A stretch of 13,152 nucleotides of DNA, taken from positions 1 to 13,152 of the IMG/VR virus record IMGVR_UViG_2698536428_000004. One strand, written 5' to 3'. The DNA is from a virus. Lineage: Duplodnaviria > Heunggongvirae > Uroviricota > Caudoviricetes. The notes below the pieces were generated by a model. That model searched no databases. It saw only the letters and a list, made by a program, of their open reading frames with translations, and was not told where the DNA came from. Shown here one piece after another: positions 167-13,120 of the stretch. The translations under genes and the position numbers were made by a program. Each line of letters opens with the position of its first letter. The stretch's first letter is position 1.

Positions 167-325
167 GTTCTTACGCCTCGGGCTGGCTACTTAACCCCTG
201 ACCACTGCCTGGTAACTCGAAGTATTGCCTGGCGTTCTGTGGGGCGGGGTGGGTTGATGAAATAATGATGCACTTTTAAAGTTATGATGTCAACACTTAT
301 AAAGTTAGCTTTTGATCAATAAAAA

Positions 326-350
326 CCGCCTCGTGTGAAGCGGTTCTGCG
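326..350 (-). terminator. Rho-independent terminator downstream of the toxin gene
   Basis: On the minus strand, AACCGC-TTCACACGAG-GCGGTT hairpin followed by TTTTTATTG, immediately 3' of the toxin stop at 362. Confidence 0.5.
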
Positions 351-361
351 AAAAAAGAAGA

Positions 362-643
362 TTATCCAGGAAATTGTCGTCTGGAGTGGGTGACACTTAC
401 TATTTCAACACTCGAAGCGGCTACACGGTACAGAATGATATAGTTAGGATGAGCTACAATCTCACGCAAGCCAAACGCTCTGTCGCTTGATGGGTATAAG
501 TACGGATGTTCAGATAAAGCTAAAACACATGTCTCAATGCGAATCTTTAGCCTGCGTGCGGCATGGAGATTTTCTTTTGCAATATAGGCTACGATCTGAC
601 GTAAATCATCACGTGCAGAAGGTAGCCATAAAATGGGCAGCAT
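362..643 (-). CDS. Type II toxin, ParE/RelE superfamily
   Basis: 93 aa ORF (MLPILWLPSARDDLRQIVAYIAKE...IVSVTHSRR) with the layout of ParE/RelE plasmid-stabilisation toxins; its start overlaps the upstream antitoxin stop by 1 nt (ATGA), the classic antitoxin-then-toxin arrangement. Confidence 0.75.
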   Translation of the reverse strand: MLPILWLPSARDDLRQIVAYIAKENLHAARRLKIRIETCVLALSEHPYLYPSSDRAFGLREIVAHPNYIILYRVAASSVEIVSVTHSRRQFPG

Positions 644-834
644 TACACACTCCCGCTAGTCGCAGCAATTTGGGCAATGAGATTTTCCATTTCTGCCATT
701 ACATCATCATGAGGAATTGCAGGGCGCGGATCTGCAAGATTTGCAGCTACTTTTGCACGTAGCCATTCGTTGTAATTATTTTCTTGCTCAACGGTTTCAA
801 ACTCAGAAACCATCGGCGAAAGGGCAGTGTTCAT
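643..834 (-). CDS. Type II antitoxin (ParD/RHH-like), partner of the ParE/RelE toxin
   Basis: 63 aa when started at MNTALSPMVSEF; AGGAGG lies 5 nt upstream of this ATG (plus-strand cctcct at 842-847). The longer track ORF (to 897) has no RBS. Acidic C-terminus typical of antitoxins; overlaps the toxin start. Confidence 0.65.
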   Translation of the reverse strand: MNTALSPMVSEFETVEQENNYNEWLRAKVAANLADPRPAIPHDDVMAEMENLIAQIAATSGSV

Positions 835-863
835 AACATACCTCCTTTGGCTTATGATGTAGA

Positions 864-1271
864 CTATGCTCGGTGCCCTTTCTGGGCAGCGAGCCATCTT
901 GCAACAGTGCGCTCCATTGATTCTTTTTTGTCTTTCATGTCTTTAAGCATTTTTTCTTGATCTTCCTCTGGAAATGCTCCGAATGTTTGAAGCAGTTCCA
1001 TTTGCCTGGGGCCTATTTTCATAGTATCTGGCACCACAACCTGCTCTTCTTCGTTTGGCGGTAACATAAACCAATATGGGGGATAACCCGTTACTTCAGA
1101 AAGTTTATCAAGATTAGCTGTTGATGGACTTGTGATTCCGTGAACCCACTTTTGTACCGATTGCTGGGCAACACCAATCCTGCGGGCTAGTTCTGCCTGC
1201 TTAAGTCCTGTTTTTTCCAGTACCAATTTTATTCGGTACGTGGTTATTTCAAGGGTGGTCATTCGCTTCAT
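864..1271 (-). CDS. Prophage repressor, XRE-family HTH (DicA/CI-like), no S24 peptidase domain
   Basis: 135 aa; N-terminal HTH (LKQAELARRIGVAQQSVQKWVHG) matches XRE/Cro-CI DNA-binding domains; transcribed divergently from a Cro-like gene. Size and organisation resemble DicA of Qin-type prophages. Start may be ATG 1271 or 1262. Confidence 0.75.
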   Translation of the reverse strand: MKRMTTLEITTYRIKLVLEKTGLKQAELARRIGVAQQSVQKWVHGITSPSTANLDKLSEVTGYPPYWFMLPPNEEEQVVVPDTMKIGPRQMELLQTFGAFPEEDQEKMLKDMKDKKESMERTVARWLAAQKGHRA

Positions 1272-1322
1272 GCATTCATTTTACATAAAAAAAGTGTAAC
1301 TAGCACAATTAGCTTAAAGGTG

Positions 1323-1351
1323 TTGATAAACTAACTTTAAAAGTGTATAAA
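1323..1351 (+). promoter_or_regulatory. Candidate sigma-70 early promoter for the Cro-like gene, inside the divergent operator region
   Basis: TTGATA (1323-1328), 17 nt spacer, TATAAA (1346-1351), about 28 nt upstream of the ATG at 1379. The surrounding intergenic region (1272-1378) contains an inverted repeat TTAAAG-N15-CTTTAA and repeated AAGTGTA motifs that may be operator sites. Confidence 0.4.
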
Positions 1352-1378
1352 TCATGGTGATTCACTGGAGATAACGAT

Positions 1379-1645
1379 ATGCATGAATGTTTAAAAAATA
1401 AAATTCACCAAAGAGGGTTATCCCAAGCAGGTATTGCTCGTTTGATTGGATTACCGCAACAGGTTGTGTCTCGATGGGCTAATGGTCAGCAGGTCCCTGC
1501 ATCAAGGGTTCTGCAACTTTGTGAGATTATGGCGTGGGAGGTTACCCCCCACGAACTCCGACCTGATATTTATCCTAACCCAACAGACGGCTTGCCTGCT
1601 GAGTTTCAGACTAGCACACAGCCAGCGACGGGAGTTGATTCATGA
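1379..1645 (+). CDS. Cro-like HTH regulator (YdaS/DicC-like)
   Basis: 88 aa; GGAGA RBS upstream; HTH segment (LSQAGIARLIGLPQQVVSRWANGQ) and an ELRPDI motif recalled from YdaS-type Cro-like proteins; divergent from the repressor; stop overlaps the next gene (ATGA). Confidence 0.7.
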   Translation: MHECLKNKIHQRGLSQAGIARLIGLPQQVVSRWANGQQVPASRVLQLCEIMAWEVTPHELRPDIYPNPTDGLPAEFQTSTQPATGVDS

Positions 1646-2067
1646 AAATCAAGCATGAGCACATCCGCATGGCGATGAATGCCTGGGCATATCCTGACGG
1701 TGAGAAGGTGCCAGCTGCTGCTATTGCCAGAGCGTATTTTGAACTGGGGATGACATATCCCGAGTTGCACAACGACGACAGGCACAACGCGCTCTATCTC
1801 AACACCCAAAAGATTTTCCGTTGGCTGGATAAAGACACTCCTGATGCTGTTGAGAAAATTCAGGCATTGTTACCGGCGATCGAAAGGGCAATGCCACCTC
1901 CGCTGGTAGCCCGAATGCGCAGCCACAGTTCCGCTTATTTTCGGGAGCTGGTGGAGACGCAGGAACGGCTAGTGAAAGATATCGATGATTTCGTTGCATC
2001 AGCGATCGTTCTGTTCGACCAGATGAATCGTGGTGGTCCGGCGGGTAATTCCGTGGCTGTGCATTGA
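1642..2067 (+). CDS. YdaT-like protein (CII-like regulator, formerly annotated as a toxin)
   Basis: 141 aa starting MKIKHEH, translationally coupled to the Cro-like gene; size and position match YdaT of Rac-type prophages (from memory, not verified by search). Confidence 0.55.
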   Translation: MKIKHEHIRMAMNAWAYPDGEKVPAAAIARAYFELGMTYPELHNDDRHNALYLNTQKIFRWLDKDTPDAVEKIQALLPAIERAMPPPLVARMRSHSSAYFRELVETQERLVKDIDDFVASAIVLFDQMNRGGPAGNSVAVH

Positions 2068-7378: not shown

Positions 7379-7435
7379 TGCTGCGGGTGCTTGAGGCTAT
7401 CTGTCTCAGGCATGAATACCAAAAGGCAGATAGAG

Positions 7436-7515
7436 AAAAGCCCCAGTTAACATTGCGCGTCCGGCAAGACGCTTAACATTAATCTGAGGCCATATCTATG
7501 CTCTACACACGTAGG
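7436..7515 (-). ncRNA. sok: Candidate Sok-like antisense RNA (approximate boundaries)
   Basis: By analogy with hok/sok loci the antisense RNA lies opposite the hok leader. The minus strand shows a possible -35/-10 (TTGCCT, 17 nt, TAACCT; plus coordinates about 7551-7523) and a hairpin GCGTC-TTGCCG-GACGC (plus coordinates about 7459-7474). Ends are not defined by sequence alone. Confidence 0.3.
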
Positions 7516-7554
7516 TTAGCCTCTTACGTGCCGAAAGGCAAGGAGAAGCAGGCT

Positions 7555-7710
7555 ATGAAGCAGCAAAAGGCGATGCTAATCGCCCTTATCGTCATCTGTT
7601 TAACCGTCATAGTGACGGCACTGGTAACGAGGAAAGACCTCTGCGAGGTACGAATCCGAACCGGCCAGACGGAGGTCGCTGTCTTCACAGTCTACGAACC
7701 TGAGGAGTAA
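7555..7710 (+). CDS. hok: Hok/Gef-family type I toxin (51 aa membrane peptide)
   Basis: MKQQKAMLIALIVICLTVIVTALVTRKDLCEVRIRTGQTEVAVFTVYEPEE closely parallels recalled Hok ([52 protein letters not shown]); AAGGAGA RBS; the track ORF 7498-7710 is an in-frame 5' extension. Confidence 0.85.
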   Translation: MKQQKAMLIALIVICLTVIVTALVTRKDLCEVRIRTGQTEVAVFTVYEPEE

Positions 7711-9219: not shown

Positions 9220-9579
9220 ATGCTCATAGATTTGGTTTTACCTTACCCGCCGACGGTGAACACTTACTGGCGACGCCGTGGCAGCACATATTTTGTATCA
9301 AAAGCCGGGGAGCGTTATCGCCGGGCAGTGGCGCTTATTGTTCGCCAGCAGCGCTTGAAATTAAGCCTGTCCGGACGGTTGGCAATAAAAATTATTGCAG
9401 AACCACCGGATAAGCGCCGCCGTGACCTGGACAATATTCTGAAAGCACCGCTGGATGCGCTTACGCATGCGGGGTTGTTAATGGACGATGAGCAGTTTGA
9501 TGAAATCAATATTGTACGTGGTCAGCTTGTTCTTGGTGGTCGGCTGGGTGTGAAGATTTACAAAATTGAGAGTGAGTGA
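9220..9579 (+). CDS. rusA: Crossover junction endodeoxyribonuclease RusA (Holliday junction resolvase)
   Basis: 119 aa; AAGAGGTGA RBS; LPYPPTVNTYWRR...PDKRRRDLDNILKAPLDALTHAGLLMDDEQ parallels E. coli RusA (LPWPPSNNRYYRH...[30 protein letters not shown]). Confidence 0.85.
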   Translation: MLIDLVLPYPPTVNTYWRRRGSTYFVSKAGERYRRAVALIVRQQRLKLSLSGRLAIKIIAEPPDKRRRDLDNILKAPLDALTHAGLLMDDEQFDEINIVRGQLVLGGRLGVKIYKIESE

Positions 9580-10148
9580 GCGTAAATATGATATATCCGG
9601 AAATTACAGGCAAAAGCGGCGAACATTTACGCCTGAACACGCTGGAAGCAGTCTGGATCCAGGGGAAATTACGGATGTGGGGGCGGTGGTCGTATATCGG
9701 TGGGGGTAAATCCGGAAATATGTTTAACCGGTTACTGGTTTCGAAAAAGCTGACGAAAACAGCAGTTAATGAGGTTTTACGCAGAATGAAGAAATCCGGG
9801 CTGGAAAAACCGGAACTTGAGGCATTTTTTCGGGATATGACCAGAGGGAAGCAGAAGAGCTGGTTGTCACATTGTACAGACACAGAGGCGTTGATTATTG
9901 ATCGCGTTATCAGTGAGGTGCTTGGGGAATATCCCGGACTAATCAATATTCTCCGGCAAAGGTACGAAGGACGGGGAATGAGCAAACTGAAAATGGCCGA
10001 AAGGTTAAATGCAGATCATCCTGAGTGGACGTTGGTTACGTGCAGACGCCGAATTGATCAGTGGTTGGGGATATCTGAATTTATGTTACATGCCCCCATG
10101 CGTATGGCTTTTGTTACAGAGAAAAAAATGTTGCAAACTGATCAATAA
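9576..10148 (+). CDS. Probable late-gene antiterminator (Q-like), assigned mainly by position
   Basis: 190 aa ORF immediately after rusA (start GTG 9576 or ATG 9588) and immediately before a short region with a strong intrinsic terminator, the position lambdoid phages give to Q; the family was not confirmed by a motif I can name. Confidence 0.4.
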   Translation: MSVNMIYPEITGKSGEHLRLNTLEAVWIQGKLRMWGRWSYIGGGKSGNMFNRLLVSKKLTKTAVNEVLRRMKKSGLEKPELEAFFRDMTRGKQKSWLSHCTDTEALIIDRVISEVLGEYPGLINILRQRYEGRGMSKLKMAERLNADHPEWTLVTCRRRIDQWLGISEFMLHAPMRMAFVTEKKMLQTDQ

Positions 10149-10576: not shown

Positions 10577-11131
10577 TGTGGTAAATGGGCGGCTGATGGG
10601 TGTGGTGGTTGTTGCTTTCCCGTTGCTGAAAAAGAAAGCATCAGGCGATTAGCAGGGTATCAGTTACCCGTTGAAATTTTTAAATACCTCACAATTCAGG
10701 CGGTTGACTGTTGTCTGGTTTGCGGGGAGTTTGTTAAAAGAAACTGGCATGGTGAATCCCCCTGTGCGGAGGGGCAATCAGCAACTGGTGTTTTGTCACC
10801 GACCCTTATCCTTTCTGTGCGGGTTCAGGTGCTGATACTGAACTCACCGGGAGGCAACCGGCACCATGCAATGGCACATAGCGCCACTCTCCAGCCCCTC
10901 TCCGGAGGGGCTTTCTTGTGGGCAAAAAAAAGCCTGAGTGGGTTCGGGCAACAGCATGAGATATACATTTTTATAATCGAATGGATTTTAACCAGAATTC
11001 ATAAGGCTGCGCAACTGCGCGGTCTTTTTCGAATTGCGGGCTGTCGTCTCCCTTCTGCCATTGTCCTGTAACTTCCGGACTTCAGCCCGCTCCTTATTTT
11101 ACTCACAATATTATCCCGGCCGGGAGGATTC

Positions 11132-13120
11132 ATGGCATTTAAACACTATGATGTGGTCAGGGCGGCATCGCCGTCAGACCTTGCGGATGCGCTTGCTCAA
11201 AAAATTCGTGAAGGATGGCAACCATACGGCGGGCCGTTTTCTTCGTATACGGATGATGGCGCAGCACTTATTCAGGCGATTGTCGCAGAAGGTGATGTCA
11301 CCACACCTGTGGTGGTGAAGCCGTCGGATGGAGAAGGCACAGTTATCAGCACCACCAGCGAACCGGAGTATTACTTTGTTGTTGTTCTGGCGGGGCAGTC
11401 AAACTCAATGTCTTTTGGTGAAGGGCTGCCGCTGCCGGAGACATATGACCGTCCGGACCCGCGTATTAAACAGCTGGCGCGTCGCAGTACGGTGACGCCG
11501 GGTGGTGCCGCCTGTAAATATAACGACATCATTCCGGCAGACCACTGTCTGCATGATGTGCAGGATATGAGTAACCTGAATCATCCTCATGCAGACCTGA
11601 GTAAGGGACAGTACGGTTGTGTGGGGCATGCTCTGCATGTTGCCAAAAAGCTGCTGCCGTTTATGCCTGCGAATGCGGGTATCCTTCTTGTTCCATGTGG
11701 CCGTGGCGATTCGGGATTTACTGCGGGGGCCGAGGGGGCGTTTAACGAAGCGTCGGGAGCGACCGCAGGCTCGTCCCTGTGGGGGGCGGATAAACCGCTG
11801 TATCATGACCTGGTCAGCAGAACCCGTGCGGCCCTGAAGAAAAATCCGAAGAACGTGCTGTTATCAGTGATCTGGATGCAGGGAGAAAAAGATGTCAGTT
11901 CGGGGAGACATGCAGAACACAATGCGCTTTTCCTTGCCATGGTAAATCAGTTCCGTACGGAACTGGCAGATGTGGCAGAGCAGTGTACTGGCGGGACAAC
12001 GGCCAGCGTCCCGTGGATTTGCGGTGATACCACGTACTACTGGAAGGAAAGGTATGCAGTGCCGTATGAGGCGGTTTACGGTGGGTATAAAGGAAAAGCT
12101 GCGCAGAATATTCACTTTGTGCCGTTGATGACGGATGAGCATGGTGTGAATGTGCCGACAAACGAGCCGTCAGAAGATCCGGACATTATCCCGGCGGGAT
12201 ACTATGGCGCTGCGTCACGCACTGCCAGTAACTGGACGGCAGCCGATCGTAAAACGCACTTCAGTTCATGGGCGCGAAGAGGCCTTGTTTCAGACCGCCT
12301 GGCAGGTGCCATTTTGCAGTACGCCGGGCGGACATTATCGTTCCTTACCGGGCAGAGCGCACCGCAGTCGGGTGGTACAACGCCTGTCAGTCCGGGGACA
12401 CCGGATGTTGAGAAACCGCAGGATGGCGGTGTTGCTGGTACTGGTCATGATGAGGCCGTGAGCAGTACCAGGACGGTGGCTGAATATGATGCGAACAGTG
12501 GAAATGGTGCATTGACAGAGCAGCAGTGGGGCGCTTCCGGCGGCAAAGGCACTGTGACTGATGACGGTGGACGGAAAGCGCTGCGACTGGAAAAACAGCC
12601 CGGTAAACTGACGTCCTGGAAAATGTTCCGTACTATTGCAGTGGAGGAGGCAAAAAATCTTCTCAGCAAGGGGGGGGAAATTGCCGTACGGTTCAAAATT
12701 CCGGATGGAAGCGAGCTGGTGAACGGACAGTTTGTCTTTGGTATCTACTGGCCGGTGTCGCAGTGGGCGTCAGGCGCGACAGCAAACAGTATGCTGGCAT
12801 CATTCTTCCTTCAGACGGATACATCAAATCTTAATCTGATGCACCAGAAGGGCTCCTCGAATGCACAACTGGGTACATTTGGTACGTTTGACCATAACTG
12901 GCATACGGTTGTTTTCCGCTTTGCGGGAAATAACAGCGAAAGAGTTGTTCCGGTGATTGATGGTGCAGAGCAGACGGCATTTGACCTTGTGATGTGGACA
13001 AATGATGGCTTTACAGCAGATACGCTGACGCTGACAGATATCACGGGGGCAAAAGCGACGTATCCGGTACTGCTTGATACGGTCACAGTCAAAGTTAACG
13101 AAAACCGGGAATCAGCATAA
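11132..13120 (+). CDS. nanS: Prophage sialate O-acetylesterase (NanS-p type; DUF1737 N-terminus plus SASA/SGNH esterase domain)
   Basis: 662 aa; GGGAGGA RBS; N-terminus MAFKHYDVVRAASPSDLADAL...; esterase signature VVLAGQSNSM (GQSN catalytic-serine motif); location downstream of the Q/terminator region matches the nanS-p genes of EHEC lambdoid prophages. Confidence 0.75.
   Translation: MAFKHYDVVRAASPSDLADALAQKIREGWQPYGGPFSSYTDDGAALIQAIVAEGDVTTPVVVKPSDGEGTVISTTSEPEYYFVVVLAGQSNSMSFGEGLPLPETYDRPDPRIKQLARRSTVTPGGAACKYNDIIPADHCLHDVQDMSNLNHPHADLSKGQYGCVGHALHVAKKLLPFMPANAGILLVPCGRGDSGFTAGAEGAFNEASGATAGSSLWGADKPLYHDLVSRTRAALKKNPKNVLLSVIWMQGEKDVSSGRHAEHNALFLAMVNQFRTELADVAEQCTGGTTASVPWICGDTTYYWKERYAVPYEAVYGGYKGKAAQNIHFVPLMTDEHGVNVPTNEPSEDPDIIPAGYYGAASRTASNWTAADRKTHFSSWARRGLVSDRLAGAILQYAGRTLSFLTGQSAPQSGGTTPVSPGTPDVEKPQDGGVAGTGHDEAVSSTRTVAEYDANSGNGALTEQQWGASGGKGTVTDDGGRKALRLEKQPGKLTSWKMFRTIAVEEAKNLLSKGGEIAVRFKIPDGSELVNGQFVFGIYWPVSQWASGATANSMLASFFLQTDTSNLNLMHQKGSSNAQLGTFGTFDHNWHTVVFRFAGNNSERVVPVIDGAEQTAFDLVMWTNDGFTADTLTLTDITGAKATYPVLLDTVTVKVNENRESA

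Follow-up and report, generated by a model that had tools for sequence, protein, structure and literature searches.

The DNA analysed here, referred to as the window, is the whole 13,152-nucleotide stretch of the tailed-phage (Caudoviricetes) record IMGVR_UViG_2698536428_000004. Three consecutive open reading frames (ORFs) on the minus strand occupy positions 362 to 1271 and encode, from right to left, a repressor, an antitoxin and a toxin. The locus is very probably an allele of PaaR-PaaA-ParE, a three-component type II toxin-antitoxin system, within the immunity region of a lambda-like Escherichia coli prophage. The operon comprises the following elements.

864..1271, minus strand: paaR-like prophage repressor, 135 residues; the N-terminal part is an XRE/HTH_3 domain, the C-terminal domain is the conserved one of PaaR, and an S24 peptidase is lacking.
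643..834, minus strand: paaA-like antitoxin, 63 residues from the ATG at 834, without a DNA-binding domain.
362..643, minus strand: parE-family toxin, 93 residues.
841..847, minus strand: ribosome-binding site (RBS) of the antitoxin gene, AAGGAGG, 6 nt 5' of the ATG at 834, read from the sequence.
318..347, minus strand: intrinsic terminator of the paaR-paaA-parE transcript, at the position of lambda t_imm; a hairpin followed by UUUUUAUU.

The repressor stop codon (864–866) and the antitoxin ATG are separated by 29 nt (835–863), and the stop of the antitoxin gene shares one base with the start of the toxin gene (TAATG, 641–645). The GGAG core of the antitoxin RBS aligns with the equivalent core in a paaR1-type locus of E. 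coli O157:H7 and in the locus of strain STEC435, both described below. A longer, 84-residue antitoxin ORF (643–897) was rejected; it overlaps the 3' end of the repressor gene, and the strong RBS serves the 63-residue start, which agrees with the length of PaaA2 and with the RefSeq annotation of a near-identical locus. The terminator hairpin begins twelve nucleotides 3' of the toxin stop. In the minus-strand RNA of 312–366, it forms a GC-rich stem of 11 bp with the core CCGCUUC/GAGGCGG at 326–343, and folds with an energy of −15.5 kcal/mol (z = −4.2; 0 of 200 shuffles folded as well). The hairpin is absent from the list returned by a simple consensus terminator scan, our guess being that the extended stem takes up part of the U tract. 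Because the hairpin is not followed by a T tract on the plus strand, the terminator should work on the minus strand only. The first-pass annotation of this DNA had placed the pair 29 bp past the repressor stop, on the same strand, behind a strong RBS and with a shared terminator at 326–350, a description that the ORF coordinates, the AAGGAGG motif and the folded hairpin bear out.

A second GC-rich hairpin is found on the minus strand at 868–894, within the last repressor codons (inverted repeat I3). Its fold has a z of −2.5, and GC hairpins can also form at this junction in the related loci, but in a shifted register. It may be an RNA element that tunes the expression of the repressor relative to that of the toxin-antitoxin pair, but is probably a by-product of the Ala/Arg/Gly codon composition.

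The antitoxin matches the Pfam family PaaA2 (PF21217) with 72.2 bits (cutoff 27), its sole Pfam match at E ≤ 0.1. It also matches NCBIfam NF050103 with 88.2 bits; this model, named 'RelB family antitoxin', has 45 positions and covers the PaaA2-like region only. The PaaA2 chain of PDB entry 3zbe was recovered with an E value of 3.7e-23. No ribbon-helix-helix, Phd, ParD, RelB-type ribbon-helix-helix or helix-turn-helix Pfam match was obtained at E ≤ 0.1. The protein is the short, PaaA-type antitoxin without a DNA-binding domain that characterizes PaaR-PaaA-ParE systems, and not the ribbon-helix-helix, DNA-binding and autoregulating antitoxin of canonical ParDE and RelBE modules. A ParD, Phd or RelB ribbon-helix-helix identity was consequently rejected, and the ParD and Phd profiles proposed earlier gave way to PaaA2.

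The toxin is a ParE-family protein, as in PaaR-PaaA-ParE systems. It scores 59.9 bits against Pfam ParE_toxin (cutoff 23), and residues 1–92 match ParE2 of E. coli O157:H7 (PDB 5cw7_B) with an E value of 2.1e-36. The RelE_StbE model (TIGR02385) yields 23.0 bits, below its cutoff of 27.9, and a RelE identity was rejected; of the ParE/RelE label given initially, the first half stands and the second does not. The window pair shares with ParD-ParE of plasmid RK2 and with RelB-RelE the toxin fold of the ParE/RelE superfamily, the placement of the antitoxin gene first and the stop/start overlap. It differs from both in its antitoxin, which lacks the DNA-binding ribbon-helix-helix domain found in ParD and RelB; this suggests that a separate repressor has taken over autoregulation.

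The closest experimentally studied system is paaR2-paaA2-parE2, carried by CP-933P (Sp12), a cryptic prophage of E. coli O157:H7. It was described by Hallez et al. (2010, Mol Microbiol 76:719, as cited elsewhere) and by Jurenas et al. (2021, mBio, PMC8630535); structures are available under PDB codes 3ZBE, 5CW7, 5CZE and 5CZF. Three loci were compared with the window. The locus of strain EH031 (L004) carries the published paaR2-paaA2-parE2 allele; its regulator starts with MQKKE, the PaaR2 N-terminus determined by sequencing (PMC8630535), and its toxin is identical to the ParE2 sequence in the PDB. The second is another copy in O157:H7, from strain RIMD 0509939 (L002), and the third a hybrid in strain STEC435 (L003). 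All three retain the gene order and the neighbours seen in the window, namely leftward DUF1391/ydfA and dicB or kilR genes, and rightward ydaS, ydaT and replication genes. The amino acid identities of the window proteins to these loci are as follows.

Repressor: L002, 65%; L004, 33%; L003, 88%.
Antitoxin: L002, 78%; L004, 65%; L003, 68%.
Toxin: L002, 86%; L004, 68.5%; L003, 69%.
YdaS: L002, 48%; L004, 30%; L003, 77%.
YdaT: L002, 85%; L004, 79%; L003, 37%.

The toxin and the antitoxin are closest to the ParE1-type toxin and the A1-type antitoxin of the RIMD 0509939 locus, and more distant from the crystallized ParE2 and from PaaA2. An intact paaR2-paaA2-parE2 set, with a toxin that equals ParE2 exactly, was also found in Escherichia phage Evi (LR597642.1); its parE gene (L005, 1497–1775) is unannotated in that record.

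The repressor matches Pfam HTH_3 over residues 14–68 (52.3 bits). Its other Pfam matches at E ≤ 0.1 are helix-turn-helix-type families and a weak, sub-threshold OpuAC match at residues 78–128. Peptidase_S24 was not matched at E ≤ 0.1 in Pfam or NCBIfam, and the approximately 65 residues that follow the helix-turn-helix domain are too few for an S24 domain; they align instead to the PaaR C-terminal domain. The protein does not belong to the self-cleaving LexA/CI-type repressors, as the first-pass annotation had anticipated, and without an S24 domain no direct inactivation by RecA is expected. In the homologous system, PaaR2 is a CI analogue that lacks the RecA-cleavage motif and does not respond to mitomycin C (PMC8630535). 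A search for LexA boxes (CTGTN8ACAG, one mismatch allowed), which might have pointed to SOS control or to an antirepressor under such control, returned 8 sites against 4.6 expected, none of them in 1–2200.

The best full-length profile match of the repressor is NCBIfam DicA (NF007257), with residues 12–131 aligned to model positions 8–130 of 135 (E 1e-15). The score of 57.6 bits is well under the family cutoff of 101, and by this measure the protein is a distant relative of the DicA subfamily and not a member. It resembles DicA of the Qin prophage of E. coli K-12 in its length of 135 residues, its genomic position and the absence of a peptidase; dicA in Qin is not known to be followed by a toxin-antitoxin pair. 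The closer relationship is to PaaR. A PaaR-homologous regulator lies directly upstream of the antitoxin gene on the same strand, as in PaaR-PaaA-ParE systems. The similarity to the O157:H7 regulator that stands beside the ParE1-type pair extends over 132 residues and rises to 78% in the C-terminal 50, which marks the two as the same XRE repressor type. The comparison with PaaR2 gives 54% identity over the last 50 residues and 19% in the N-terminal part. PaaR2 is reported to form octamers (PMC8630535), and by analogy the conserved last 50 residues may constitute an oligomerisation domain.

A promoter scan found no sigma-70-like site on the minus strand of 835–1271. The absence of an internal promoter-like site, together with the single terminator, makes the sequence compatible with co-transcription of the three genes. 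The pair could instead be an independent two-gene module with a promoter of its own, uncoupled from the immunity switch, but we regard this as very improbable. Some regulation independent of the repressor does exist in the homologue, since PaaA-ParE complexes are reported to repress the paaR promoter in part (Hallez 2010, as quoted in PMC4803016), and a CP-933P reporter shows appreciable transcription of the toxin-antitoxin genes in both states of the switch (PMC8630535). Against such autonomy, the antitoxin comprises only the toxin-binding region of PaaA2, the 29-nt gap is filled by the RBS, the repressor gene contains no promoter-like minus-strand site, and all related loci examined retain the order repressor, antitoxin, toxin although mosaic exchange has occurred among them. 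Moreover, the homologous paaR2-paaA2-parE2 genes form an operon that is repressed by PaaR2 (Hallez 2010, as cited in PMC8630535 and PMC4803016).

The operon is bounded on both sides by putative control regions, and two divergently transcribed genes lie to its right.

1272..1378, no strand assigned: divergent control region (right operator region, OR) between the repressor gene and the ydaS-like gene, with a PRM-like (repressor maintenance) and a PR-like (rightward) candidate promoter and operator copies.
265..307, minus strand: PL-like (leftward) promoter with two operator copies, directed leftward into a ydfA-like gene.
1379..1645, plus strand: ydaS-like gene, Cro analogue; Pfam YdaS_toxin, 41.4 bits, and HTH_3, 31.1 bits; phrog_35, a transcriptional repressor family.
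1642..2067, plus strand: ydaT-like gene, CII analogue; Pfam YdaT_toxin, 37.3 bits; phrog_163, a CII-like activator family.
1635..1652, plus strand: YdaT operator TTGATTCATGAAAATCAA, straddling the ydaS stop and the ydaT start, an exact match (zero mismatches) to TTGATTN6AATCAA.

The PR-like promoter consists of TTGATA (1323–1328) and TATAAA (1346–1351) on the plus strand, and the PL-like promoter of TTGACA (293–288) and CATCAT (270–265), with 10 of 12 matches in the promoter scan. Both have spacers of 17 nt, and each spacer contains one copy of TAACTTTAAAAGTG. The OR copy is found at 1332–1345, and degenerate copies end near 1296 and 1322; the two copies in the left operator region (OL), at 271–284 and 294–307, are 23 bp apart. 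A 35-nt inverted repeat joins the OL/PL region (268–318) to the OR/PR region (1314–1355), as do direct repeat D5 and inverted repeats I1 and I2. These copies are likely operators, and the OR region shows 91% conservation with STEC435, a strain whose repressor is of the same type. The divergent ydaS-ydaT genes and the OL/PL region beyond the toxin gene are features of a lambdoid immunity region.

On the opposite strand of OR, a PRM-like −10 element, TAAAAT (1283–1278), lies exactly 6 nt from the repressor ATG at 1271. The same spacing separates TAAAAT from the ATG in the paaR1-type locus and GATAAT from the ATG in the paaR2-type locus, and in paaR2 5' RACE placed the +1 position at the A of the ATG, the start being mapped by N-terminal sequencing as well (PMC8630535). 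Because this geometry is kept in three immunity types, including the mapped paaR2, the repressor mRNA is likely leaderless and likely starts at 1271. RefSeq places the repressor start of a near-identical locus at the equivalent of 1262 which, if the leaderless start holds, is three codons too late.

The role of YdaS as the Cro analogue has been established in CP-933P, where both PaaR2 and YdaS footprint on OR, a PL/OL analogue and a YdaT-dependent promoter for repressor establishment (PRE) have been shown, and the switch is bistable (PMC8630535). In that prophage, TTGATTN6AATCAA is the high-affinity YdaT site OM, located at the end of ydaS beside the PRE-like promoter (PMC9986795). The exact copy at 1635–1652 of the window implies, on this analogy, a conserved PRE-type control of leftward transcription. 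The Pfam names of the two families, YdaS_toxin and YdaT_toxin, are misleading for automated toxin-antitoxin calls; in the CP-933P experiments YdaS and YdaT are Cro-like and CII-like regulators and not a toxin-antitoxin pair (PMC8630535, PMC9986795).

What the analysis shows for the window itself is its gene content, with the homologies and the spacing, and further the terminator, the operator repeats and the YdaT site. The locus resembles paaR2-paaA2-parE2 in many of its features. Both have the leftward order R-A-E, a PaaA2-family antitoxin that lacks a DNA-binding domain, a ParE toxin, an S24-less repressor with a related C-terminal domain, divergent ydaS-ydaT genes, an exact YdaT operator, OL/PL beyond the toxin gene and the −10/ATG spacing that predicts a leaderless repressor mRNA. 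The two differ at the repressor N-terminal domain, which in the window is a clear HTH_3 essentially unrelated to that of PaaR2, at the operators (TAACTTTAAAAGTG in the window versus a GTTTAGTAA consensus in CP-933P), and at YdaS. These differences in the DNA-binding domain, the operators and YdaS point to a different immunity specificity. The antitoxin of the window, moreover, has an A1-type C-terminal tail, and given the divergence of both partners, the pair is probably non-cross-neutralising with PaaA2-ParE2.

From the homologue experiments we carry over to the window the co-transcription and repression of the genes, the leaderless start, the toxicity of ParE, the lability of the antitoxin and the addiction of the host. 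On this basis, the repressor would bind the TAACTTTAAAAGTG-like operators at OR (1272–1378) and OL (265–307), and would thereby silence both the ydaS-ydaT-replication operon, which is read rightward, and the PL operon, which is read leftward. It would be expressed from a weak PRM-type promoter as a leaderless mRNA, probably from its own ATG, and the transcript would cross the 29-nt gap into paaA-parE and end at 318–347, with paaA and parE presumably coupled in translation through the 1-nt overlap. YdaS would contest the same operators, and YdaT, bound at 1635–1652, would drive an alternative leftward transcript of the PRE type. Since PaaA has no DNA-binding domain, the expression of the pair is expected to depend on the prophage switch. 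In the homologue, ParE is toxic and is neutralized by its cognate PaaA, an antitoxin labile to ClpAP and ClpXP (PMC8630535). With a labile PaaA and a stable ParE, the loss or replacement of the immunity region would free ParE and kill or arrest the cell, and the host would thereby be addicted to the immunity region of the prophage.

The paaR2-paaA2-parE2 operon stabilizes plasmids by post-segregational killing (PMC8630535), and the experiments on the homologue support the proposal of a single immunity-plus-addiction transcript that stabilizes the prophage. The further idea that toxin activation is coupled to the loss of repressor expression fared differently. In the homologue, where it was tested, coupling was not seen; the SOS-positive fractions are equal in both transcriptional states (PMC8630535). 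As ParE2 activity was detected in neither state of the switch, this idea is so far without support.

Several points weigh against the assignment and the mechanism derived from it. The undetected ParE2 activity (PMC8630535) is one, and even in the homologue a role beyond plasmid-type addiction is only a hypothesis. By sequence, the N-terminal DNA-binding domain and the operators depart from those of PaaR2 and CP-933P as described above, and the switch may depart from that of CP-933P in its details, for instance in how many sites there are, how they are ordered and how PRM is activated. Finally, we take the RIMD 0509939 locus to be paaR1-paaA1-parE1 of CP-933M by elimination and not from a named annotation; operon-like DNA was found at two places in O157:H7 records, and this locus does not carry the ParE2 sequence.

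The arrangement of the window is also that of lambda cI-rexA-rexB, with a leftward repressor gene read from a leaderless PRM transcript, two cargo genes, a terminator and then OL/PL, and with divergent Cro-like and CII-like genes on the other side. The repressor is unrelated in sequence to CI beyond the helix-turn-helix domain and has no S24 autopeptidase, the place of CII is taken by YdaT, a POU-domain protein, and the cargo is a toxin-antitoxin pair and not RexAB. Defence cargo is common in prophage lysogeny operons. Since the PaaA-ParE pair would ride on the repressor mRNA in the slot of rexAB, with the repressor gene upstream of it and t_imm and PL downstream, it might serve mainly in superinfection exclusion or abortive infection and not in addiction or prophage stabilization. 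We consider this unlikely. No PADLOC-DB 2.0 model matches the toxin or the antitoxin, and assignment to a known anti-phage defence system was rejected on that basis; the matches to the repressor are confined to the helix-turn-helix region, except for one weak, longer capH match. The sole phenotype demonstrated for the homologue is post-segregational killing with plasmid stabilization. A RexAB-like role would in any case be compatible with the assignment to PaaR-PaaA-ParE, which concerns architecture and regulation.

The operon is not confined to the window. A 1,101-base query (window 300–1400) gave full-length matches of 99.8% identity in 8 complete E. coli genomes, and in one of these, strain UTME-9, the operon itself (362–1271) is matched at 100% identity. 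These near-identical loci lie in a lambdoid prophage beside potC, between a dicB/ydfA-type left arm and the ydaS-ydaT and replication genes. The preservation of such copies bears on the view that the module is a decayed, non-functional remnant of a defective prophage. Related prophages are often cryptic, CP-933P among them, and internal stops occur in neighbouring genes of a near-identical prophage. The ORFs of the window are nonetheless full length in comparison with their homologues (toxin, 93 versus 92–95 residues; antitoxin, 63 versus 63; repressor, 135 versus 133), and RBS, overlap of start and stop, terminator and operators are likewise intact. Intact ORFs and signals that recur nearly unchanged in several genomes make decay the least credible of the alternatives, and we give it almost no weight.

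A DNA search detected operon-like sequences in 842 of the 5,426 complete E. coli genomes, mostly as more distant versions and in several combinations of immunity region and cassette. The RIMD 0509939 locus carries the toxin-antitoxin cassette closest to that of the window and also shares the ydfA/DUF1391, dicB and exonuclease neighbours. Its control-region DNA is only 40–61% identical and its YdaS diverges as tabulated, which indicates a different immunity type. A sliding comparison over 200–2100 gave the complementary picture for STEC435. OL, the N-terminal half of the repressor gene, OR and ydaS are 84–93% identical to this strain, and the toxin gene shows in its 5' half only 51% identity to it and 74–84% to the O157 ParE1-type locus; YdaT, unlike YdaS, sides with the O157 types. 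Between OL and the repressor gene, the cassette is of the ParE1 type in the window and of the ParE2 type in STEC435. The combination of STEC435-like immunity parts with a ParE1-type toxin indicates that the cassette and the immunity determinants have reassorted. It is possible, although we put it forward only tentatively, that the window represents a third PaaR-family immunity type in which cassettes were swapped within a fixed immunity region, or immunity regions around a retained cassette. If so, such natural mosaics could test the published idea that PaaA-ParE polices recombination between heteroimmune prophages.

The system type, its logic and the peptidase-less CI analogue are already published (2010, 2021). 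What belongs to the window is a previously uncharacterized allele with a distinct immunity type and a swapped toxin-antitoxin cassette. The discovery value is small, as architecture, regulation and addiction have been reported for the O157:H7 homologues. The assignment is of use for annotation, because the RefSeq names are generic ('helix-turn-helix domain-containing protein', 'RelB family antitoxin' and 'RelE/ParE family toxin'). The combinations of immunity region and cassette provide material on the reassortment of toxin-antitoxin cargo relative to immunity specificity, and the reassorted parts merit mention in a comparative study and not as a new finding.

Beyond the immunity region, O-like, P-like, hok/sok, RusA-region and Q-like genes follow in the window. 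No full-window match was found among the complete E. coli genomes, the best one covering 77% at 95.9% identity; judged by these alignments, the prophage is a mosaic. At 7385–7560, the Rfam model of the sok antisense RNA is matched with 116 bits. This points to a type I toxin-antitoxin locus of the hok/sok kind, which gives the prophage a second module of the addiction type. No tRNA or stx gene was found in the window. The Q-like antiterminator gene lies at 9576–10148 (DUF1133/Phage_antitermQ), and just downstream of it an Rfam match to the small RNA STnc100 is found at 10718–10923 (140.6 bits). The stx position of Stx phages is occupied by a gene (11132–13120) for a 662-residue protein with DUF1737, SASA (sialate O-acetylesterase-like) and DUF6645 domains, an architecture that is presumably that of the NanS-p esterases of enterohaemorrhagic E. 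coli lambdoid prophages.

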